A stretch of DNA of 59,206 nucleotides. Source: a bacterium (lineage in GTDB: Bacteria > Zhuqueibacterota > Zhuqueibacteria > Residuimicrobiales > Residuimicrobiaceae). The translations under genes and the position numbers were made by a program. Where the stretch lies: NCBI GenBank assembly GCA_036788095.1, contig DAIQOA010000004.1:1-59206 (forward strand). The letters run 5' to 3'. Under the pieces are notes generated by a model. That model was not told where the DNA came from, ran no database searches, and saw nothing but the letters and a program-made list of their open reading frames with translations. The stretch's first letter is position 1, and each line of letters begins with the position of its first letter. This document shows, piece after piece, positions 3,590-57,370 of the stretch.

Positions 3590-3654
3590 GCCCTTTTAGC
3601 GACTCGAACGAATCGCCTTTGCCGCGCCTCTGATGCGCAGCGCCCTTTTTTCCA

Positions 3655-3683
3655 TTGACAACAAGAATGTCTTTTTCTATATT
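3655..3683 (+). promoter_or_regulatory. sigma70-type promoter for cydAB
   Basis: TTGACA (3655-3660) - 17 bp - TATATT (3678-3683). Confidence 0.7.
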
Positions 3684-3776
3684 GATGACACATTCCGCGA
3701 AGGCGCTGACCGCGGCGCCGCGCCAAACACCGCAAATGGCGCCACCCGCGGCAAACCAAAACCAGAGGATCCCCCC

Positions 3777-5123
3777 ATGGATGCATTTCTTTTATCGCGG
3801 TTGCAATTCGCTCTTACCATCGGTTTTCACTATATCTTTCCGCCCCTGAGCATCGGCCTGGGGATTCTGCTGGTGCTCATGGAAGCCCGGTACATCAAAA
3901 CCAGGGACGCGCTCTATCTCGATATGACCAAATTCTGGGCCAAGATTTTCGCCCTGACCTTCGCCCTGGGCGTAGCCAGCGGCATTGTCATGGAGTTTCA
4001 GTTCGGCACCAACTGGTCAATCTACTCCCGTTTTGTCGGCGATGTGTTCGGCAGCGCTCTGGCGGCTGAAGGCATTTTCGCCTTTTTTCTCGAGTCGGGA
4101 TTTCTCGCCATCCTGCTCTTCGGCTGGAATCGGGTAAAGCCGAAAGTGCATTTTTTCGCCACCTGCATGGTGGCGCTGGGCGCGCACTTTAGTGCCGTCT
4201 GGATCATTGTCGCCAATTCATGGCAACAGACGCCGGCCGGCCACCACATCGTCCAAGCCGGCGGCGTTGCGCGTGCAGAGATCGTTGATTTCTGGAACCT
4301 GGTCTTCAATCCCTCCACCGTGGATCGTCTCAGCCACACCCTGGCCGGCGCCTGGCAAGCCGGCGCTTTTTTGGTCCTGAGCGTAGCCGCCTATTATTCG
4401 CTGCGTAAGAGACACGATCGCTTCAGCGCCGCTGCGCTGAAAATCGCCCTGCCCATCGCCGTCTTCTCCTCGCTGCTGCAGCTGTTCACCGGCCACCAAA
4501 GCGCCCAGGGAGTGGCTGAAACACAACCGGCGAAACTGGCGGCTTTTGAAGGCCACTATGAGGCCTGCGCGGCGGCGGATATGTATCTGTTCGGTTGGGT
4601 GGATGAAAAAGAGGAAAAAGTGCGCTTCGGCATCAGGATCCCGGGCCTGCTCAGCTGGATGGTCCACGGCAGCTGTTCCTCGCCGGTGACGGGTCTGAAG
4701 GCGTTCGCGCCGCAGGACCGCCCGCCGGTGAACATCGTTTTTCAAACCTATCACCTGATGGTGATCATCGGCATGGGGCTGATCGCCCTGTCTCTGGTCG
4801 CGCTCTTTTTTCACCTTCGCGGAACCCTGCTCAGGAAAAACTGGCTGCTGTGGATTCTGCTGTTCAGCGTGCTGGGACCACAGGTGGCGAATCAGGTGGG
4901 ATGGGCTTCGACGGAGATAGGCCGGCAACCCTGGATCGTCTATCAGCTGCTGAGAACCAGCGACGCCTGGTCACCTAATGTCTCTACAGGCGAACTCTAC
5001 TTCTCGCTGGTCCTGTTTTCCATCATCTATGCGCTGCTGCTGGCGCTCTTTCTCTATCTGCTTAACGATAAAATCCAAAAAGGACCCGGTAACGCATTCA
5101 GCCTGGAGGGACATCGCGCATGA
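3777..5123 (+). CDS. cydA: Cytochrome bd ubiquinol oxidase subunit I
   Basis: [30 protein letters not shown] and GRQPW motifs; start moved to ATG 3777 because the ORF-track extension overlaps the promoter. Confidence 0.95.
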
Positions 5124-6148
5124 ATGGGGCTCTAGATCTCAACACCGTATGGTTTTTTCTGGTGGGCGCGCTGTTTGCCGGCTATGCCATTTTGGATGGA
5201 TTCGATCTCGGCGTCGGCGGCTTGCACCTCTTCACCCGCGGCGATGAACATCGTCGCGTTATGATCAACGCCATTGCGCCGATCTGGGACGGCAACGAAG
5301 TTTGGCTGGTCACCGGCGGAGGCGCACTCTTTGCCGCCTTTCCCAATGTCTATGCCGCCGCTTTTTCAGGATTCTACATCGCCTTTATGCTGCTGCTCTT
5401 CTGCCTGATCTTCCGTGCCGTCTCCATCGAATTCCGCAGCAAGCAGCCCATGGCCTGGTGGCGGGCCTTCTGGGACATCAGCTTCAGCGTCAGCAGCCTG
5501 CTCGCCGCCCTATTAATCGGCGTCGCCCTCGGCAACATCGCCTGGGGAATCCCGCTCGACAGCCAGGGAACCTTTCACGGCTCCTTCTGGAGCCTGCTCC
5601 ATCCCTACGCCCTGCTGGTGGGTGCATGCACCGTGGTTCTGTTTCTCATGCACGGTTCGATCTTTCTGCTGATGAAAACCGAAGGTGTGCTGCAGCAACA
5701 GATCCGTTCATGGACCAAACCCTTGATCCTCGCGTTCATCGGCTGTTATCTGGCGCTCACGCTGTCCACGTTCCTGACCGTGCCGCATTTGACCGAGTCG
5801 TTTCTCAGCCGTCCGTTCCTCTATCCGGTAGCGTTCATCAATTTGCTGGCGATCATCAATATTCCGCGCGAGATGAAGCGAGGCCGCACGCTGGCCGCCT
5901 TTCTTTCAAGCGCAACCGCCGTGTTAACCCTGCTGCTGCTTTTTGGCGTCAGCGCATACCCGCATCTGATTTATTCTCATCCGTTGGCGGCCAACAGTCT
6001 GACGATCTATAACGCCGCCTCTTCAGCCAAAACATTGCGGATTATGCTGATCATCGCCGCCTGCGGACTTCCCCTGGTGCTCGCTTATACGACGAGCATC
6101 TATTGGATCTTTCGCGGCAAGGTTAAACTGGATGAACACAGTTATTGA
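5120..6148 (+). CDS. cydB: Cytochrome bd ubiquinol oxidase subunit II
   Basis: LDGFDLGVG, WDGNEVWL, FRAVSIEFR motifs; coupled to cydA. Confidence 0.95.
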   Translation: MNGALDLNTVWFFLVGALFAGYAILDGFDLGVGGLHLFTRGDEHRRVMINAIAPIWDGNEVWLVTGGGALFAAFPNVYAAAFSGFYIAFMLLLFCLIFRAVSIEFRSKQPMAWWRAFWDISFSVSSLLAALLIGVALGNIAWGIPLDSQGTFHGSFWSLLHPYALLVGACTVVLFLMHGSIFLLMKTEGVLQQQIRSWTKPLILAFIGCYLALTLSTFLTVPHLTESFLSRPFLYPVAFINLLAIINIPREMKRGRTLAAFLSSATAVLTLLLLFGVSAYPHLIYSHPLAANSLTIYNAASSAKTLRIMLIIAACGLPLVLAYTTSIYWIFRGKVKLDEHSY

Positions 6149-19178: not shown

Positions 19179-19922
19179 ATGCATACCATTAAACGGTTGT
19201 TGGGGCTGGCGATTGTCACCGGTCTGCTCGTCTCCACCTCCCCCCTCCTTGCCCAGGGACAAGGTCAGGGTAAAAAAGACAAATCCGCTGTAGAGCGTAA
19301 AACCGACAAAAAGGGGCAGGGTCATAAAAGTCAACAGGATCAACCCGGTCAGAGTCAGGTTGAAAAAGGAAAACACGACAAAGAACGGCCTGCCGGCTGG
19401 GACAAGGGCAAGAAAGAGGGTTGGGATAGCGACGTTCCGCCAGGCTGGGAGAACTGGGACGACGCTAAGAAAAGCAAATGGCAGGGGGATCTGCAACAGG
19501 CCAAAGATAAAGTGCGCGCCAAGGGTAAAAGCGGCAAAAAACGCAACCAGGCGGAGATGGACAGTGCCTGTGTCGCCCTGGAACAGGGGGCAAGGGCAGG
19601 TATTCCCATAGAAGAGGTCGAGGGTGTGGTCGAAAAAAGTCTGGAAAAGGGATTAAAAGGCAGGGAGCTCCAGGCCGCCACCCACGCCATGGCGCGCGGC
19701 GCCAGACAGAGCGTTGAAACCACCTCCATGGCTGCTTTTGTTCATCAGAAACTGGACGAAGGGCTGAGAGGGGACGCTCTTTCAACCCAGATCGAGGCTG
19801 AGATTGAAAGGCGTCACGCCGACAAGGTAAAGGCGGATGAATCGGCGGCGAAAACGGCTCAGGAGGCCCTCGAGAAGGAAAAAGCCGCCAAGTCTAAAAA
19901 ATGGTGGGAGTTCTGGAAATAG
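19179..19922 (+). CDS. Secreted Lys/Glu-rich hypothetical protein
   Basis: GAGGAG SD, signal peptide ending LLA-Q, GQGQG and PAGW/PPGW low-complexity segment, helical C-terminus. Confidence 0.75.
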   Translation: MHTIKRLLGLAIVTGLLVSTSPLLAQGQGQGKKDKSAVERKTDKKGQGHKSQQDQPGQSQVEKGKHDKERPAGWDKGKKEGWDSDVPPGWENWDDAKKSKWQGDLQQAKDKVRAKGKSGKKRNQAEMDSACVALEQGARAGIPIEEVEGVVEKSLEKGLKGRELQAATHAMARGARQSVETTSMAAFVHQKLDEGLRGDALSTQIEAEIERRHADKVKADESAAKTAQEALEKEKAAKSKKWWEFWK

Positions 19923-20070
19923 CTGTTATGATTCCGCCCAGGGAAGCTTTTACCTGGGCGGTCGTCAAAAACGCAATCCGGGGGATTGCACCACTGGAAT
20001 TCACCACGCAACGGTGTAACTTGTACAATAAAGCCGGTCGTTTGGGCATCTCTTTCCTAAGTGATATAGA

Positions 20071-21171
20071 TCACCAACAACCGTTCGCCCAACGATAAAA
20101 AATCTTTAGCTTATTTCCGTGCGGCATGGCTAGAAAATGATCATGCTGTAATCTGCCGACCAGTATACCCGGCGCCAAATCGATTTTTCGGGAAAATTGG
20201 ACGATATAATCAAGTGATCGTCGATTCCAAGTGCGGCAGAAAGTCTGATATGCGATCGGCGGAATGAGGATTTCGCGAGCGAATTTATTTGCCTCCTCTT
20301 CTTTTTCATCATTTTGCTCCATGCCTTCGAGAAAGATTTCCTTTTTGCCATGCTTTAAAATATGGCCGGCTTCGTGGAAAAAGGTGAACCACAATTGGTC
20401 ATTGCTTTTATATCTCAGGCTGAGTTGAATGACGGCTTTATTGCCAAGCCAACGAGTAGCGCCGCAGACCTGCATTTTAGGCAATTCCGGAATAAAAAGC
20501 ACAATGACGCCGCAGGCTCCACAGAGGTTTTGGAGCTGCTTACAGAAGCTACCGGGATGGGGTTCTTGGGTTAATTTACGGATTTCCATTAGATTTTTTT
20601 GAAATAGCTTTTGATCATATGGATCACATTGGTTTTTTTCCGCCTCTAATTCGCCTTTGCGCAGCCAGGCGGCAATGCTTTCTTTAGAGGGTTGAAATTT
20701 TGAATTCCGGCGAAAGGCTATGGCCGGGCGTTCAGACCAAACCAAGCTCCATTGTTCAGGTGAAGCAACGCCGAAAAAGCGCAGGATCTGATCCAGTTGG
20801 TATAATTTGTCCCCGCTGTTCTCAATCCAACCTAACTTGATCATGGATTTTACCGGAAATTTCGCAAGCCAGTCTAACCGGCTTTTCCGGCGCTCCAATT
20901 CCTCCACCCGTATGCGGTTTTCCTGATATTGACACTCCAAGCTATTCCAAAAATGTGCCGGTCGACCCAGCACGAGTTCGAGCTTGAAGGCAGATTCCGG
21001 GGTTATAGGGGATTTGCCCTGAATGATCTCGTTGATGGTTTTTTTCGACAACCCGGTTCGGGCGGATAAATCCGCCTGGGTCATTTGCCGTTCGTCCAAA
21101 TAATCCTGCAGGATTTCTCCCGGCTTGACAACATAGTCCGGAAGGTATTGATTTTTTTCTTGTTTAATCAT
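20071..21171 (-). CDS. higA: HigA-family antitoxin (XRE HTH) fused to ImmA/IrrE-type metallopeptidase domain
   Basis: PGEIL...MTQADLSARTG...INEIIQGKSPIT...FWNSLE HTH; FFHEAGH (HExxH) and EEEANKFA. Confidence 0.85.
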   Translation of the reverse strand: MIKQEKNQYLPDYVVKPGEILQDYLDERQMTQADLSARTGLSKKTINEIIQGKSPITPESAFKLELVLGRPAHFWNSLECQYQENRIRVEELERRKSRLDWLAKFPVKSMIKLGWIENSGDKLYQLDQILRFFGVASPEQWSLVWSERPAIAFRRNSKFQPSKESIAAWLRKGELEAEKNQCDPYDQKLFQKNLMEIRKLTQEPHPGSFCKQLQNLCGACGVIVLFIPELPKMQVCGATRWLGNKAVIQLSLRYKSNDQLWFTFFHEAGHILKHGKKEIFLEGMEQNDEKEEEANKFAREILIPPIAYQTFCRTWNRRSLDYIVQFSRKIDLAPGILVGRLQHDHFLAMPHGNKLKIFYRWANGCW

Positions 21172-39099: not shown

Positions 39100-39357
39100 A
39101 ATTTCATCTATCCTGAAAAAAACGGAGACCAGGTTTTACGATGTCTCTTCACGTCATTTAAAGACGGACGCTCTAACCGGAAACAGTTTTTACCCCGCAA
39201 GGAGAGGTCTGTTTCATATTCGATGATCCAGAGAAACTAGCAAACCAGGGAATTGTACAACAAAAGGATCATGCTGCTTCGAGGCTGTTGTAAATCCAAA
39301 ATTCGATAAGAATTGACCGGGAATTCGCTTTTGCCGGGGGCAAAAATGACCGGCCGC

Positions 39358-39661
39358 CTATTGCATCAACACCATCTTGATGATCTTTTAAGCCGAAGAG
39401 AGCGTCAGCACCGCGTAATAAATGCCGGTGGCGAGAGGTCGATCCGCAGCGGAAAAGATCGCCCTCTGCTCCCATGCTGTCCGTGGTGGTTGTCAGCGCT
39501 TGAATAATTGGGTTCCCCGGAAGAGCGATGCATTCCTGCCAGACAACGCCATCATCAGCTGAAGACAGGATCTTTTTACTGACAACGGTATAGATCAGCG
39601 GATTCTGCGCCAGCGGGGCGCGATGCCGGCAGCAAAGGCAGCGCTCGCCGCAATCTGCCAC
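39358..39661 (-). pseudogene. Decayed remnant of a secreted BNR-repeat protein with a C-terminal sorting tail
   Basis: SSADDGVVW Asp-box in one frame; EQRAIFSAADRPLATGIYYAVLTLSSA*KIIKMVLMQ* tail in another frame, with internal TAA at 39388-39390. Confidence 0.45.
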
Positions 39662-40306: not shown

Positions 40307-42490
40307 TCACCGCAGCAGCAGAAGCTGAATCTCCGCCGACCATTCGTCCGAGGTCATACGGCAGAAATAGGCGCCACTGGGCACTGCCGTTGCATTCCAG
40401 TGCACAGAGTGGGCGCCGGCCCCCAACGAGCGCGCCAGCAGCGTCGTTACCTCCCGTCCCCGCGCATCATAGATTTTCAGCGCGACCCTGCCCGGCCGCG
40501 GCAGCTTGAAATCGATGCGGGTGGCCGCATTGAAGGGATTGGGATAGTTCTGCGCCAGGTGGAAATCCTCCGGCGCAGAGAGCGGCGGCGTGGTGACGGC
40601 GGTCCGGCCAACAACTCCAGCGGCTTCGGCGGCTGCAGCCAGCATGCTCTGCGCACCTTTGCGGATCAGACCCGGTGATAATTTGTCGATCAAATCCTCC
40701 GCTTGATGGTAGTAGGGATCCAGGCCGCCCCAAATTTCCTCTGCGCTGCCTTCCCCAAAAGAGATCGCGTCATAGCCGGCGGCGGCAAATGGGCCGTAAT
40801 CGCTGGCGCCCGTGGTATCGACCACCGCATCCAGGGTTGCGCCGATGCCATAGCGCCTATTGTAAACCAACGCTGAATCGATCAAGCGGTTGCGGCTGAG
40901 ATAGCTGCCCACCGTAAGCCGCGCCGGATTGCCGGTCAGCGGGTAGCCGATCATATCTCCATTGACCGCCGCCGCGATCTTGCGTTCTTCCTCATGGGCT
41001 TGCAGAACATAATGGGTGCTGCCGAACATGCCCAGTTCTTCACCGGATACGAGGAGAAACTTGAGAGCGGCGCCGAACTCGTACTCCCGGCAAAGCCTTG
41101 CGGCCTCCAGAACCGCGCTGGTTCCGGTGGCGTTATCATTGGCGCCGGGGGCGTAATGAAGGGGTTCATCGCTATACGAATCATAATGCGCCACCATCAC
41201 CACCTCCCGGTCCGGCGCCGTCACCCCTTTCCGGGCAGCCAGGATATTGCGCGAGAGGTGGATCAGACTCTCCGGCAGACGTTCCGTACAGGAGATCCAC
41301 TCTTCTTCACCCGTATTAATGAGCAAAACCCCTCGCGAACCGCAGGCCAACCATGATCCATCCTGCGTCCTGTCGATCCGGTACAGGTTCGGCCCCCACC
41401 CAAGGTTGAGGAGCGAGTACTCTTGCGCCCACCTCTTACCGCCGTCACGGGTTGAGAGGATCAGTCCGCTGACCGTGACGAGGCGTCCGTGCAGGCGATC
41501 GGCCATGATGATATCGCGGGGCTGATAGTGGGCCGGCAAATTCGTATTGAGCTCTTGCCACGAAGCGCCGCCATCGCCCGTGTAAAGGAGCAGTCCGTTT
41601 TCACCGGCCACCCACCCCTCCGTGGCAGAGATAAAAGAGAGTGCATGCAAACGGTACGAGGAATTTTTCAGCCGCGAGACCCAGCTCTTGCCGTGATCGC
41701 TGGAGAAGAAGAGGGCGCCGTAGTAGCTGCAGAGCCAGACATGACCGTCATCTTGAACATGCAGGTTCCAGAAAGCATCGGTGTTGTTCAGGGTAATTTT
41801 CTGCCAAGCCCCGCTCCTTTTTTCCTTACGATAGAGTACGCCCTTTTCGCCGCAAGCGAGCACAACGCCGTTCGGCAGAGCGGCGATATCCCAAAGATGA
41901 GGCGCGTCCTCCAATGCCGTTTTCGTCCAGGTAGCGCCGCCATCCCGGGTCCCGTAGAGGTTGCCATTATAGCTGCATGCCCATCCCTCGGTGGCCGAGA
42001 GAAAAGCGAGGCCGTAAAGGGGTTCTTTTTCATCAAGCGTGAGCTGCAACTGCCATGAGGCGCCGCGGTCCGTGCTGCGAAGGATGTGGCCGCGCAGTGA
42101 GACCGCCCAGAGAGAGTCGGATCCGACATGTGCAAGGTCATAAAGGTCCGTCAAACCAGTGGCATACCAGTCGGATTCGGCCTGGTATCCCAGACTTCGC
42201 AGCCGTTCAAGCAGGTACTCAGCGGCCTGGTCCCGCTGGGGGGCATACTCATAGCGGGTGCCAAAATCCTGCAGATCCTGGATGGTCCGTAACATAGAGT
42301 CGCTCGACACCTTGTCGACCATGTTCCGGATGTATGGCGACGAATCGAGGCTAGGCGGCCAGACCGCCTGAATAGATGGCTGGGCAACGGCTGGCAGAGC
42401 TCGCATTAGTTGGGATGGACGAGGCGGCTGGGCGAAGACAGGGGCGCCGATCAGGAAGGCAAGGATGATGAGCTTTGCAGTTCGTTGCAT
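40307..42490 (-). CDS. Secreted M28 peptidase with inserted YCF48/BNR beta-propeller and C-terminal sorting domain
   Basis: Signal peptide; M28 motifs AHYDS, GANDNATG, SGEELG, NGDMIG, YH; repeated SxDxGxxW boxes; LAQNYPNPFN tail. Confidence 0.88.
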   Translation of the reverse strand: MQRTAKLIILAFLIGAPVFAQPPRPSQLMRALPAVAQPSIQAVWPPSLDSSPYIRNMVDKVSSDSMLRTIQDLQDFGTRYEYAPQRDQAAEYLLERLRSLGYQAESDWYATGLTDLYDLAHVGSDSLWAVSLRGHILRSTDRGASWQLQLTLDEKEPLYGLAFLSATEGWACSYNGNLYGTRDGGATWTKTALEDAPHLWDIAALPNGVVLACGEKGVLYRKEKRSGAWQKITLNNTDAFWNLHVQDDGHVWLCSYYGALFFSSDHGKSWVSRLKNSSYRLHALSFISATEGWVAGENGLLLYTGDGGASWQELNTNLPAHYQPRDIIMADRLHGRLVTVSGLILSTRDGGKRWAQEYSLLNLGWGPNLYRIDRTQDGSWLACGSRGVLLINTGEEEWISCTERLPESLIHLSRNILAARKGVTAPDREVVMVAHYDSYSDEPLHYAPGANDNATGTSAVLEAARLCREYEFGAALKFLLVSGEELGMFGSTHYVLQAHEEERKIAAAVNGDMIGYPLTGNPARLTVGSYLSRNRLIDSALVYNRRYGIGATLDAVVDTTGASDYGPFAAAGYDAISFGEGSAEEIWGGLDPYYHQAEDLIDKLSPGLIRKGAQSMLAAAAEAAGVVGRTAVTTPPLSAPEDFHLAQNYPNPFNAATRIDFKLPRPGRVALKIYDARGREVTTLLARSLGAGAHSVHWNATAVPSGAYFCRMTSDEWSAEIQLLLLR

Positions 42491-42673: not shown

Positions 42674-43150
42674 TCAGACCTGCCCGGCGTTGATTTCATC
42701 ACCCAGAGCCAATAGTTCTTCATTCGCAGGGATGTCGCGCATGCTGTGGCCATAGTGCACGTAGCGTGCCACTCCAGCCTTGTCGATCAACACCTGGGCC
42801 GGCATCCGTCCCAGCTTGAACAGATTCACCTCTTGCCCGTAAAGTTTCAGGACGCTATAGGTCGGATCGGGCAGACCGATGAAGGGCAGTGCCTCCCTGC
42901 TAAAGTAGTCGGCGAATGTCTTGGCATTTTCCGGGCCGACCACGATGATCTCGACATCGCGATCGACGAATTTTGTGTAGTCCTGGCGCAACTGCGCCAT
43001 GTGCGCGCGGCAGAACGGTCAGGTGAAGGTCCTGTTAAAGACGAGCAGGACGTTCTTCACTCCGCGCAAGTCGACCAGGCGGACCGTGGCGCCGCGATAG
43101 TCAGCCAGGCTGAAATCAGGCGCTTTCTGGTTGAGGGATACGCGTGGCAT
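42674..43150 (-). CDS. AhpC/TSA (peroxiredoxin-like) redoxin, selenoprotein with UxxC motif
   Basis: AAGGAG SD + ATG 43150; KAPDFSL...LLVFNRTFT-TGA-PFC, in frame (codon 44, 43019-43021) with the downstream redoxin ORF. Confidence 0.85.
42984..42999 (-). promoter_or_regulatory. Candidate bacterial SECIS hairpin
   Basis: TGGCGC-AGTT-GCGCCA starting 20 nt after the UGA; G in the second loop position. Confidence 0.6.
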
Positions 43151-43196
43151 GGTGACTCTCCTTTTGTGAAAATGATGGCCTGCCCCACAGCACGCG

Positions 43197-43820
43197 CTAA
43201 TAGGTCAAGCCGACCGCTTGGCGCAGAAAGCGTTCATCCACCAGGTTCTTCAGGATAAAATCAGCCACATCCGCGCGTGCGATGCGCGGCTGGCCGACTT
43301 TCACGTTTGGGTCGGTGATGCAGCGATAAACGCCGGTCCGTGATCCGTCCTCCAGTCCACCCGGTCGGACAATGATCCAGTCGAGGCCGCTCGCGCGGAT
43401 GATCCCCTCCTCGATCTCCTTCTCGCCCAGCGCCTTGCGCAGAAAGAGGGGCGCCACGATTTTGCGCGACAGCCAACCCATTTGCGCCAGGCTGTCGCCA
43501 ACCCCGTACGAAGAGACGTGAATCAGCCGTTTGACTCCCGCCCGGCTCATCGCCGCGACGATGTTCTGCACACCTCCCGGCAGCACACCATAGTTGCCGC
43601 CGCGCGGCCCCAGTGCCGAGAGGACGGCCTCCTGACCGGCAATCGCACGGTCGACGGCCGACGCATCGGAGACATCGCCCTTGACGATCGTGAGTCCGGG
43701 GCGCGGCTCCAAAGCGGCCGGGTTACGCACGAACACCGTCACCGCATGGCCCTGCGCCAGACCCTGATCCAGCAGGGCGCGCCCCGTTTTTCCAGTAGCT
43801 CCAAACACCAATAGTTTCAT
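43197..43820 (-). CDS. NAD(P)H-binding atypical SDR (flavin reductase/BVR-B-like)
   Basis: VFGATGKTG, DWIIVRPG, IARADVA. Confidence 0.9.
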   Translation of the reverse strand: MKLLVFGATGKTGRALLDQGLAQGHAVTVFVRNPAALEPRPGLTIVKGDVSDASAVDRAIAGQEAVLSALGPRGGNYGVLPGGVQNIVAAMSRAGVKRLIHVSSYGVGDSLAQMGWLSRKIVAPLFLRKALGEKEIEEGIIRASGLDWIIVRPGGLEDGSRTGVYRCITDPNVKVGQPRIARADVADFILKNLVDERFLRQAVGLTY

Positions 43821-44200
43821 GTTGAAATCCTTTTTTTGAGTGCATACGCCCCACTCTCTATCGGCGGAACACTACTCCCTCGGTTCGGCGAGTCAACTCC
43901 GGCCTGCTGGTAAATTAGCCAACAAGAGTCTGAAAATCAACCAGAATTGCTAAAAAGCAAGTAAATAGGCTATCCTGATGCTTGATCAACTTGCATGAAT
44001 CCTAAGGATGGGAAGAATTTCTGATGTAGGGAAAAAGCCGGGGATCACATAACAAAAAACCGCTGGTGGGGACGGCAGCCGCTCCCATTCGGCTAGATTA
44101 TGATAAAAGTGCGAGTAACAAATCCGAATGCTATTCGACGGTTCGCGTCATCTTTGGGTGCTGCCAGCAAGTACGCCTTGTATTTGTTACAGCGCATAAT

Positions 44201-45490
44201 TCAAATCACCTTTCCATCCGGAATCAGCGCGCCCTTGATCACAATGACGATGCCGTTGCGGATCCAAAAGCCCTCCTGCTCGCGGGACGACTCTTGTACG
44301 TGGTCGCGATTGATAATCTGCACGTTCTTGCCGATGCGCGCATTCTTGTCGATGATCGCCCGGTGAATCACACCGCCCTCGCCGATGCCCAGCGGCGGCA
44401 GTCCTCGGCCCAGATCCTGCTCCTGCTCTTCAGCCGACTGATAGTAATCCGCACCCATCAACAGAGTCTCCTCGATCATCGTGCGCCGGCCGATGCGGCT
44501 GCGAATGCCGACGATGGACTTGCGGATCACCGCCTCTTTTATCGTGCAGCCGTCACAGAGCATCGACTGCTGGATTGCGCAGTTCTCCACCACCGTGGGC
44601 GGCAGAAACCGCGGACGGGTGAAAATCGGTTCGCCGACATCGTAAAAATTAAACTCCGGATCAGGCCCTTGCACCAGACGCAGATTGGCGTTATAGAACG
44701 CCTCGATGGTGCCGATATCCTCCCAATAGCCGCTGAACAGATAGGCCTGCACGTTATGGTGATCCAACGCCGACGGGATCATCTCTTTGCTGAAATCGGT
44801 CTGCTGCAGATGTTCGGTCAACAGGTGGATCAAAACCTTTTTTTTAAACACATAAATGCCCATGGAAGCGAGGTAAGGTTTTTGCCGCAGGGCGGCTTTG
44901 TTCTGGCCCGGCAACGGCGAGCGCAGGCGCATGGCTTTGAGCTCCGCGCCCCTGGGCTTTTCCCGGAACTCGATCACCCGGCCTTCGCTGTTGCAGCGCA
45001 AGAGGCCGAACTCGCCGGCGTTCGCTTCCTTTGCCGAAATCACCGACAGAGTGATGTCCGCTTTGGTCTGGCGATGATGATCCACCAGCAGGCCGTAATC
45101 CATCCGGTAGAGATGATCGCCGGACAGAATCACATAATCGGACACGTCCAATTCCTGCAGGGTTAAAAGATATTGGCGTACGGCATCCGCGGTTCCCTGA
45201 AACCAATCAGAACGCTCCGGCGTCTGCTGAGCCGCCAGCACTTCGACAAAGCCGGATGAAAAAGGAGAAAAGCGATAGGTCTGGCCGAGATGACGATGCA
45301 GGGAGGCGGAGTTGAATTGGGTGAGCACATAGATTTTTTCAATGCCCGAATGCAGGCAATTGCTCATCGGAATGTCGATCAGCCGGTACTTGCCGGCCAG
45401 CGGCACCGCCGGTTTGGCGCGCACCTGGGTGAGGGGATACAAACGCGTGCCCCGGCCGCCGCCGAGGATGATCGCCGCAACGTTTTTCAT
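44201..45490 (-). CDS. glgC: Glucose-1-phosphate adenylyltransferase
   Basis: [52 protein letters not shown]. Confidence 0.97.
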
Positions 45491-55430: not shown

Positions 55431-55657
55431 CTTTTTCTTCTCTCTTCCTCCCCTGGCGGCTTTGTTCAAGCCAAATACATTTTTGTTTCATTCGAGTAAC
55501 AAAATCGATCGACCGTTGGCAGGGGGTGTTGTTTATATGGTTTTTATCCGATCTCCTTCCGCCCTGCACCTGCATTCAGGCAAATAGCATACCAAAAAAA
55601 AAGGATGTCCTTTGGGACATCCTTTTCCTGTTGCTGCAGAAACTGTAGATTTTTAAA

Positions 55658-57370
55658 TCAGGCTCTTTGCTCCGCTTTTTCGATTTTAGCCCAGGAGTCC
55701 CTGAGCGTCACCGTCCGGTTCACTTTAATATTATCCGGCGCAGAGTCTTTGTCGATGCAGAAATAGCCCAGCCTTTCGAACTGAAACCGGTCCAAGGGCT
55801 GAGCGTCCTTCAGCACAGGCTCGAGACGGCACTGCTCCAGCACCTCGACTGAATTCGGATTCAGAGCGTCGAGAAAGTTCTGCCCCTCTTCCAGATCGTT
55901 CAAATTTTCCTTGAGGAAAAGATTTTCATACAGCCTCACCTCTCCGGCAAGGGCATGGCCGGCGGAGACCCAATGGATAGTCCCTTTGACCTTGCGATCG
56001 CTCTGAGAGGAGCCGCTGCGCGTCTCCGGATCATAGGTGCAGTGAACCTCCATCACCTCCTGGGTGACAGGATCCTTACGAACGCCGACGCATTTGATGA
56101 TATAAGCGTAGCGCAATCGCACCTCTCCGCCCGGCTGCAGACGAAAATACTTCTTGGGGGGATCCTCACGAAAATCATCCCGTTCGATGTACAGCTCGCG
56201 CGAAAAAAAGACTTTTCGTACACCCATGGATGGATCTTCGGGGTTGTTGATGGCGGTCATCTCTTCCACCTGGTCCGGCGGATAGTTGTCGATGACCACC
56301 TTGAGCGGCCGCAAAACCGCCATCACCCGTCTGGCGGTCCTGTTCAATTCTTCACGCACGCAATGTTCCAGCAGCGCCAGGTCCACCATGCTGTCGCGCT
56401 TGGCCACGCCGATGGTCTCGGCGAAATTTCTAATCGCCTGCGGCGGATAACCTCGCCGTCGCAATCCTGACAGCGTGGGCATGCGCGGATCATCCCACCC
56501 GCTCACCCGCCGCTCCTGGACCAACTGCAGCAGTTTGCGTTTGCTCATCACCGTGTAGCTCAGGTTGAGCCGGGCGAATTCCACCTGCCGGGGATGGTAT
56601 AATTTCAGCGTGTCCAAAAACCAGTCGTACAACGGACGATGGTCTTCAAACTCCAGGGTGCAGATCGAATGAGTGATCCCCTCCAGCGAATCGGATATGC
56701 AGTGCGCGTAATCGTACATCGGATAGACGCACCAGGCCGAACCGGTGCGATGATGGTCTGCGTGCTTGATTCGGTAGACCACCGGATCGCGCATGTTCAG
56801 ATTGGGCGAGGCCATGTCGATGCGTGCGCGCAGCACCCGTGTCCCATCCGGAAATTCACCGGCGCGCATGCGCTCAAAGAGATCCAGATTCTCTTCCATG
56901 GACCGGTTGCGATACGGGCTTTCTTTGCCCGGCAAAGTCAGGGTGCCGCGATATTCCCGCATCTCCTCCGCCGACAGATCGCAGACATAGGCTTTGCCGA
57001 GCTTGATCAGTTCTACCGCGCACTGATACAGCTGTTCAAAATAATCAGAGGCATAGAACAGCCGGTCCTGCCAATCAAATCCAAGCCAACGGACATCCTC
57101 CATGATGGATTCCACGTATTCAACATCCTCTTTGACTGGATTGGTGTCGTCGAAACGCAGATTGGTCAAGCCGCCGTATTCATTGGCGATGCCAAAGTTC
57201 AGGCAGATCGATTTCGCGTGGCCGATATGCAGATATCCGTTGGGCTCCGGCGGAAAGCGCGTATGCACCTTTCGGTCGCCGAAGCGGCCCTCGGCCAAAT
57301 CCTGATCAATGATGGGGCGGATAAAATTTGCGGGAAGAGCGACTCCCGTCTTTTCTTTGTTTTCTTCCAT
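55658..57370 (-). CDS. glnS: Glutamine--tRNA ligase
   Basis: [36 protein letters not shown]. Confidence 0.97.

Follow-up and report, generated by a model that had tools for sequence, protein, structure and literature searches.

A redoxin gene interrupted by an in-frame TGA lies on the reverse strand of the window, as we call the whole stretch of 59,206 nucleotides of bacterial DNA that was analysed, and comparison with its relatives makes it very probable that this is a genuine selenocysteine (Sec) gene, with the predicted redox centre Sec44-Pro-Phe-Cys47. Translation would begin at the ATG of position 43150, and the ribosome would pass the UGA (43021..43019) without terminating. A 16-nt hairpin inside the coding sequence, whose loop lies 25 nt past the UGA, would serve as the bacterial SECIS: SelB with Sec-tRNA(Sec) would bind the hairpin loop and deliver selenocysteine. 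Sec44 could then be the exposed attacking nucleophile, forming a selenenylsulfide with Cys47 during turnover, with a disulfide or a peroxide as candidate substrate.

Catalogues of selenoproteins have included UxxC Prx-like members since 2004-2008, and the window protein is, in biological terms, of an expected kind. The main value of the locus lies in the correction of a systematic annotation error and in a well-supported example of a compact SECIS.

Gene structure and genomic context

The features of the locus are collected in Table 1. The TGA of codon 44 is directly followed by P45, F46 and C47, and the frame then remains open as far as the terminal TGA. A preliminary description made from the letters of this DNA had reported a Shine-Dalgarno (SD) motif, the ATG, 43 codons, the TGA, the residues PFC and a frame of 158 residues, and all of them are present where it had placed them.

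Table 1. Features of the predicted selenoprotein gene and their positions in the window.
Feature	Position	Strand	Remarks
Predicted selenoprotein gene, complete	42674..43150	(-)	158 codons counting Sec44, plus terminal TGA stop
Terminal stop TGA	42674..42676	(-)	
Shine-Dalgarno AAGGAG	43158..43163	(-)	7 nt 5' of ATG
Start ATG	43150	(-)	opens 43 sense codons before TGA
In-frame UGA (predicted Sec44)	43019..43021	(-)	N-terminal residue of U-P-F-C redox motif
Cys47 codon UGC	43010..43012	(-)	putative resolving partner for Sec44; aligned with AhpE peroxidatic Cys
Putative SECIS core hairpin	42984..42999	(-)	6-bp stem UGGCGC/GCGCCA, apical loop AGUU (42993..42990)
Stretch of low synonymous variation	42984..43014	(-)	codons +3 to +11 past UGA
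108-aa ORF from Met51	42674..43000	(-)	reported by gene callers

An antisense ORF of 170 codons (42746..43258, forward strand) overlaps the redoxin gene and is the longest ORF of this stretch under translation table 11. Thus, a naive ORF track would display the antisense ORF and not the redoxin gene split by its TGA.

Upstream of the redoxin gene lies a gene for an NmrA-like, NAD(P)H-binding protein (43197..43820); the gene downstream (40307..42490, reverse strand) encodes a secreted M28 peptidase that carries BNR repeats. The NmrA-like gene adjoins the redoxin gene only in the close relatives of the window. When a conserved gene neighbourhood was sought, the best neighbour cluster was present in just 14 of 87 loci, and function cannot therefore be deduced from operon structure. 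The scan for promoters and terminators gave nothing exceeding the expectation from shuffled sequences.

The search for a second TGA-interrupted gene in the window gave only short read-through tails into intergenic DNA, none of them convincing. For four genes that end in TGA (19894..21171, 55544..57370, 39173..39661 and 44093..45490, all on the reverse strand) the frame stays open beyond the stop for a further 31-58 codons of intergenic DNA, most likely through chance in GC-rich sequence.

Conservation of the in-frame TGA among relatives

A scan of species-representative genomes gave at least 573 carriers of a relative, and at least 512 metagenome contigs with a relative were found. The best 80 of the at least 573 genome carriers, which were those analysed, belong mostly to Anaerolineae and other Chloroflexota and also include Thermoleophilia, Coriobacteriia and one 'Clostridia' metagenome-assembled genome (MAG). 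Named carriers are Levilinea saccharolytica KIBI-1 (assembly NZ_LGCM01) and Leptolinea sp. HRD-7, both cultured and the latter with a complete genome (AP024710.1); a MAG chromosome (CP059258.1) is another carrier of the TGA form. The cultured carriers open the way to an experimental test.

The codon 44 position is occupied by TGA in all 82 loci formed by the best 80 genomes plus L001 and L002. In the metagenome scan, which was queried with the diverged branch of the family, 81 loci of this branch were obtained, 80 of them with TGA and one with TGC. The Sec-form sequences, window included, amount to 163, with protein identities down to about 55%, and each of them holds the TGA. The only sense codons detected in this column are real Cys codons (TGT or TGC), which occur in five homologues (L083, L084, L085, L086 and L091); these supply the alignment with Cys homologues that the preliminary description had suggested as a check. 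The terminal stop varies among relatives (TGA in 30, TAA in 30, TAG in 20), while the internal codon is constantly TGA.

A lone in-frame stop in one sequence normally points to a pseudogene, or to an error of sequencing or assembly, here one that would have produced the TGA in the window. However, 163 independent assemblies, which stem from various studies and phyla, share this TGA, and both halves of the gene are under purifying selection, so that the probability left to this explanation is negligible.

Ten loci from Thermoleophilia, Coriobacteriia and one 'Clostridia' MAG (L020, L022, L023, L029, L036, L046, L049, L055, L069 and L075) show 70-77% identity to the window protein and carry the same SECIS, many Anaerolineae copies being equally similar. 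The presence of such copies in other phyla suggests either transfer between phyla or mis-binned contigs.

Selection and start sites on both sides of the UGA

The pN/pS ratio is 0.37 for codons 2-43, located 5' of the UGA, and 1.12 for the same nucleotides read out of frame as a control. For codons 45-50 (PFCRAH), which lie between the UGA and Met51, the ratio is 0.25, and for the C-terminal part after the UGA it is 0.23. The reading frame and the spacing around the UGA are constant across the relatives. A start codon preceded by an SD-like motif is found about 43 codons 5' of the UGA in 150 of the 163 Sec-form loci; an SD-like motif ahead of Met51 occurs in only one of the 163, and the window has none. 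Among the ordinary stops of the window TGA is the most frequent, closing 21 of the 44 long frames, and it also ends the redoxin gene itself, which indicates that this genome has not reassigned TGA.

Gene callers output exactly what would be expected if the locus gave two products: a peptide of 43 residues terminated by the TGA, and a protein of 108 residues that starts at Met51. In that case codons 45-50 would be an untranslated spacer, yet their pN/pS ratio (0.25) denotes purifying selection, and both frame and spacing are kept. Met51 would have to be used without an SD motif in 162 of the 163 loci, and the 108-residue piece would be devoid of the entire redox motif and of three beta-strands; both the predicted fold and the Pfam domain extend across the TGA. 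Furthermore, a codon serving only as a stop would be expected to change into TAA or TAG, in the manner of the terminal stop. For these reasons we regard two separate products as very improbable.

Taken together, the conserved TGA, the purifying selection, the start sites and the normal use of TGA as a stop exclude, in our view, a pseudogene, two genes and a variant genetic code. As judged from the aligned sequences, the gene is a single conserved frame read through a conserved UGA, and the 108-residue 'protein' from Met51 is, on the same comparison, an annotation artefact and not a separate gene.

The predicted SECIS hairpin

The published bSECIS model (PMC13188914 Fig. 2) comprises a loop of 3-9 nt, a stem of 4-16 bp, 16-37 nt from UGA to loop, a G within the first two positions of the loop and, next to it, a G or U, and a minimum free energy (MFE) of -7.5 kcal/mol or lower. 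The hairpin of the window, which begins at the 20th nt past the UGA, agrees with all of these features (4-nt loop, 6-bp stem, G-U at loop positions 2-3, spacing of 25 nt, -10.0 kcal/mol), and the proposal of a bacterial SECIS geometry made in the preliminary description is thereby upheld. The SECIS elements of Escherichia coli fdhF and fdnG, like the bSECISearch consensus, are also hairpins placed within the coding sequence immediately 3' of the UGA, their small apical loop containing a G followed by a U and lying at a spacing of 16-37 nt, although the window hairpin does not resemble the E. coli elements in sequence.

When the 62 nt after the UGA were folded as a single sequence, the result was no better than chance (z=-0.39; 65 of 200 shuffles folded as well or better), and the MFE structure of these 62 nt was other than the SECIS hairpin. 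Single-sequence folding is uninformative here because the sequence is GC-rich. The hairpin is thus not trustworthy from the window alone, and its support comes from the comparison across the 163 relatives. The scan of the window against Rfam at gathering thresholds detected two tRNAs only and no SECIS family.

The RNAalifold consensus of 83 sequences is exactly the hairpin of 6 bp and AGUU loop that the preliminary description had placed, correctly, at 20 nt from the UGA. The core supported by RNAalifold is short (6 bp), and neither a conserved lower stem nor a bulged U was detected in it. Synonymous variation collapses precisely over codons +3 to +11 (pS of 0.31 vs 0.72-0.75 elsewhere). Within this stretch, Cys is encoded by UGC in 80 of 81 cases, Ala by GCG in 78 of 79, Gln by CAG in 81 of 81 and Leu, for which six codons are possible, by UUG in 80 of 80, while Arg is restricted to CGC and CGU. 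Invariant Leu and Ala columns outside the stretch employ 4-6 codons. On the evidence of these frozen synonymous sites, codons +3 to +11 are under dual coding and RNA constraint.

In a covariation test on the 83 closest sequences the shuffles equalled the data in 230 of 500 cases, the test being uninformative because the stem is nearly invariant in this set. A wider set of 141 non-redundant sequences, to which the diverged branch had been added, showed pairing in 99.5% of the cells, vs 17-67% in slid controls. Cells with a double, compensated change numbered 17 in this set (3.1+-1.5 in shuffles, 0/500), and the covariation score was 0.140 (0.101 in shuffles, 0/500). For instance, pair 25:36 is seen as GC, GU, AU and UA, and pair 26:35 as CG and UA. 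Seven sequences have the stem UGAUGC/GCAUCA, where coupled replacements (Ala to Met, Arg to His) have altered both partners of two adjacent pairs. The stem is UGUCGC/GCGACA in L087 and UGACGC/GCGUCA in L015 and L114. The seven-sequence variant probably represents a single clade, so that the independent compensatory events are about four; most stem positions are invariant, and the compensatory evidence comes from this clade and from three separate sequences. The locus is in this respect a clean case of RNA structure constraining a coding sequence, with two amino acid changes coupled and the pairing of the stem kept.

There is practically no variation in the loop A-G-U-U or in the 25-nt spacing, the one exception being L001, with AGAU. 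Of 148 Sec forms, 144 have a fully intact hairpin, compared with two of five Cys forms (Fisher p=2e-4, with four of the five Cys forms counted), a difference which indicates that the hairpin decays once Sec is lost.

Imperfect stems are found in a few loci. The closest species representative, an orthologue 93% identical to the window protein (L003:10130-10189), keeps the TGA and has an uncompensated A.C stem mismatch, which arises from the replacement of Ala by Thr (GCG to ACG). L042, L055 and L140 have one stem mismatch apiece. A 5-bp stem may be tolerated. In L084 (L084:1-2904) the Cys-form homologue has an intact hairpin and adjoins genes for an RVT_1 reverse transcriptase, a DsbA-like protein and a C_GCAxxG_C_C protein, the last belonging to a family that is itself among the selenoprotein families (PMC9312934).

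Protein fold and redox centre

With U read as C, the protein matches the Pfam domains PF00578 (AhpC-TSA; residues 7-130, E=1.2e-21, 77.3 bits with a cutoff of 26) and PF08534 (Redoxin; E=3.6e-17, 63 bits with a cutoff of 26.6), and both matches span the TGA. These two domains, the U-P-F-C motif and the universal TGA of the Sec forms (163/163) bear out the UxxC Prx-like redoxin of the preliminary description. The closest solved structures by sequence, all of them distant, are Bcp1 (3drn, E=8e-9), AhpE of Mycobacterium tuberculosis and ResA.

In the alignment with AhpE, the peroxidatic Cys of the Prx motif T-x-x-C corresponds to Cys47 and the Prx Thr to Sec44. The Pro of PxxxTxxC is missing, since R40 stands at -7 from C47, where AhpE has P. 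In the AlphaFold model, which is confident (pLDDT 93.5, pTM 0.90), U44 and P45 lie where the loop following strand 33-38 ends, and C47 belongs to the first turn of helix 46-56. Foldseek recovered AhpE, Bcp1 and ResA with TM values of about 0.8 (0.7-0.84) and about 24% identity. The location of Sec at the Prx Thr, that of Cys47 at the peroxidatic position and the geometry at the helix N-terminus all indicate that the centre is of the thioredoxin-style UxxC type. The TGA had previously been assigned to the redox-active residue, which holds for a UxxC centre but not for the peroxidatic position of peroxiredoxins, where it is Cys47 that aligns.

No signal or anchor sequence is present in the protein. 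The predicted product is a cytoplasmic thioredoxin-fold ('Prx-like') thiol oxidoreductase of 158 residues.

Elsewhere in the window, the gene at 5120..6148 (forward strand) encodes subunit II of a cytochrome bd oxidase (PF02322, 4.7e-102), and the 496-codon ORF directly upstream (3633..5123, forward strand) probably encodes subunit I. Oxygen is probably tolerated by the organism, in keeping with redoxins of the antioxidant type.

Relationship to known families

Thioredoxin-like UxxC motifs replacing the TxxU of peroxiredoxins have already been described (PMC1088965, PMC2398784 Table 2, PMC13188914). Of the GOS families, 'Prx-like 1' (pfam00578, UxxC) is one of the most abundant (PMC2398784), and a 2026 review has entries for a 'Prx-like thiol:disulfide oxidoreductase' (PF00578, UxxC/UxxU) and a 'Redoxin family protein' (PF08534, UxxC) (PMC13188914). 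Published representatives are WP_010940744.1 (Geobacter sulfurreducens, Prx-like 1) and HEU0032618.1. The window protein shares with these selenoproteins the same Pfam domains and the UxxC motif, the likeness being one of domain and motif definitions, and they too were predicted by comparative genomics. However, the clade of the window is found mainly in Anaerolineae, Thermoleophilia and Coriobacteriia, whereas the Prx-like and Redoxin families come from Deltaproteobacteria or marine plankton; among close relatives the clade is nearly always in the Sec form (163 Sec vs 5 Cys).

None of the curated NCBIfam selenoprotein models reaches its cutoff with the window protein. The best match, NF040769 (SelL-related redox protein; E=6e-21, 74.8 bits vs a cutoff of 120), aligns over the N-terminal 99 of 173 profile positions, redox motif included, and this score below the cutoff denotes a non-member by the NCBI criterion. 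SelL is a UxxU Prx-like selenoprotein of aquatic eukaryotes, whereas the window protein has UxxC. PrxU of Eubacterium acidaminophilum (NF040737) has in common with it the AhpC/TSA fold and a Sec in the active-site loop. However, the Sec of PrxU is the peroxidatic residue of PxxxTxxU, while in the window protein Sec would replace the Thr, Cys47 takes the peroxidatic position and the Pro is absent. Scores for canonical Prx and PrxU membership are well below the thresholds (15.9 vs 270 for NF040737; 40 vs 140 for NF006960).

The CxxC oxidoreductases ResA and TlpA and the 1-Cys peroxiredoxins AhpE and BCP (4nmu, 1st9, 1xvw, 3drn) have the same fold (TM 0.7-0.84), and the CxxC of ResA occupies a position at the helix N-terminus that matches the UxxC of the window. 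The identity to all of them is about 24%, and the window protein differs in being predicted as cytoplasmic and in having Sec in place of the first Cys.

By domain and motif, the gene fits the published definitions of UxxC Prx-like and Redoxin selenoproteins, and we would class it as a putative member that is new or, at the least, uncurated. A bolder proposal, which we consider rather unlikely, is that these genes constitute a distinct uncurated subfamily of UxxC redoxins, nearly always in the Sec form and distributed among hundreds of species of Anaerolineae, Thermoleophilia and Coriobacteriia, in which an unusually invariant, minimal 16-nt SECIS dictates the residues M-A-Q-L-R, and which may be a principal reason why lineages such as Anaerolinea retain the Sec machinery in spite of having no dehydrogenase annotated with Sec (PMC4959059).

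Selenocysteine machinery and decoding of the UGA

The genes selA, selB, selC and selD were sought in the 59-kb window and in about 1.3 Mb of flanks around the relatives, and none was found. ARAGORN runs on the window and on 86 loci gave no tRNA-Sec, and the signature expressions for SelD (GxGCGCK), SelA (SGDKLLGGPQ) and SelB (GHVDHGKT) had no matches in 1.3 Mb. The ORFs of the window with the size of SelD, SelA or SelB turned out to be the cytochrome bd subunit II, a GHMP-kinase-like protein and a DAK2/DegV protein. From the features of the gene we infer both the incorporation of selenium and the presence of selABCD in the source genome.

Support for the machinery comes from the literature at the level of the lineage: single-cell genomes of Anaerolineales are reported to encode Sec-specific elongation factors and Sec-containing FDHs (PMC4959059). 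Anaerolinea thermophila UNI-1 encodes SelB, yet no dehydrogenase annotated as Sec-containing (PMC4959059). Three selenoprotein families were credited to the Chloroflexi in 2006 (PMC1794560).

Decoding of UGA44 as an amino acid other than Sec would yield a WxxC or CxxC redoxin, either by a near-cognate tRNA (Trp, Cys or Arg) in a hairpin-stimulated read-through or by insertion of Cys through the Sec pathway. This would be compatible with the negative searches for the Sec machinery in the window and flanks, and many databases do give W at this codon, although that W was traced to gene calling with genetic code 4. However, no TGG was found at the Sec column in any DNA sequence examined, the hairpin fits the SelB-type bSECIS model down to the invariant G-U of the loop, and the maintenance of TGA over TGC or TGG in 163 lineages is sensible only if the product is non-standard. 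Decoding by a standard amino acid is consequently improbable, and insertion of Sec is the reading that we prefer.

Database records of the family

The protein search gave two classes of relatives. Those of the first class are 106-117 residues long, 81-100% identical and start at Met51, and those of the second have about 155 residues, are 55-80% identical and mostly show Trp at position 44. The DNA behind two sampled 'W44' proteins (L001:281-766 and L087:131-748) has TGA at this position, so these two are genetic-code-4 miscalls; the L087 protein record also has a false 50-residue C-terminal extension that runs through three more TGAs. The remaining W44 records (for instance P0001 and P0059) are very likely code-4 miscalls too, such miscalls arising when genes are called on short metagenome contigs. 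The sampled public records are thus wrong either way, since they lose the active site by truncation at Met51 or show a Trp in it. Because the NCBIfam cutoffs are not reached, automated pipelines will go on missing the family.

A different discrepancy affects the gene downstream of the redoxin gene. In the window it encodes a single protein of 727 residues with BNR repeats, a peptidase M28 domain and a Por-secretion tail, and the same region of a 98%-identical relative (L002:10510-12428) holds two genes, for a PSII_BNR protein of 342 aa and a Peptidase_M28 protein of 175 aa. Fusion or splitting of the gene could account for this difference, as could a frameshift in one of the two assemblies.
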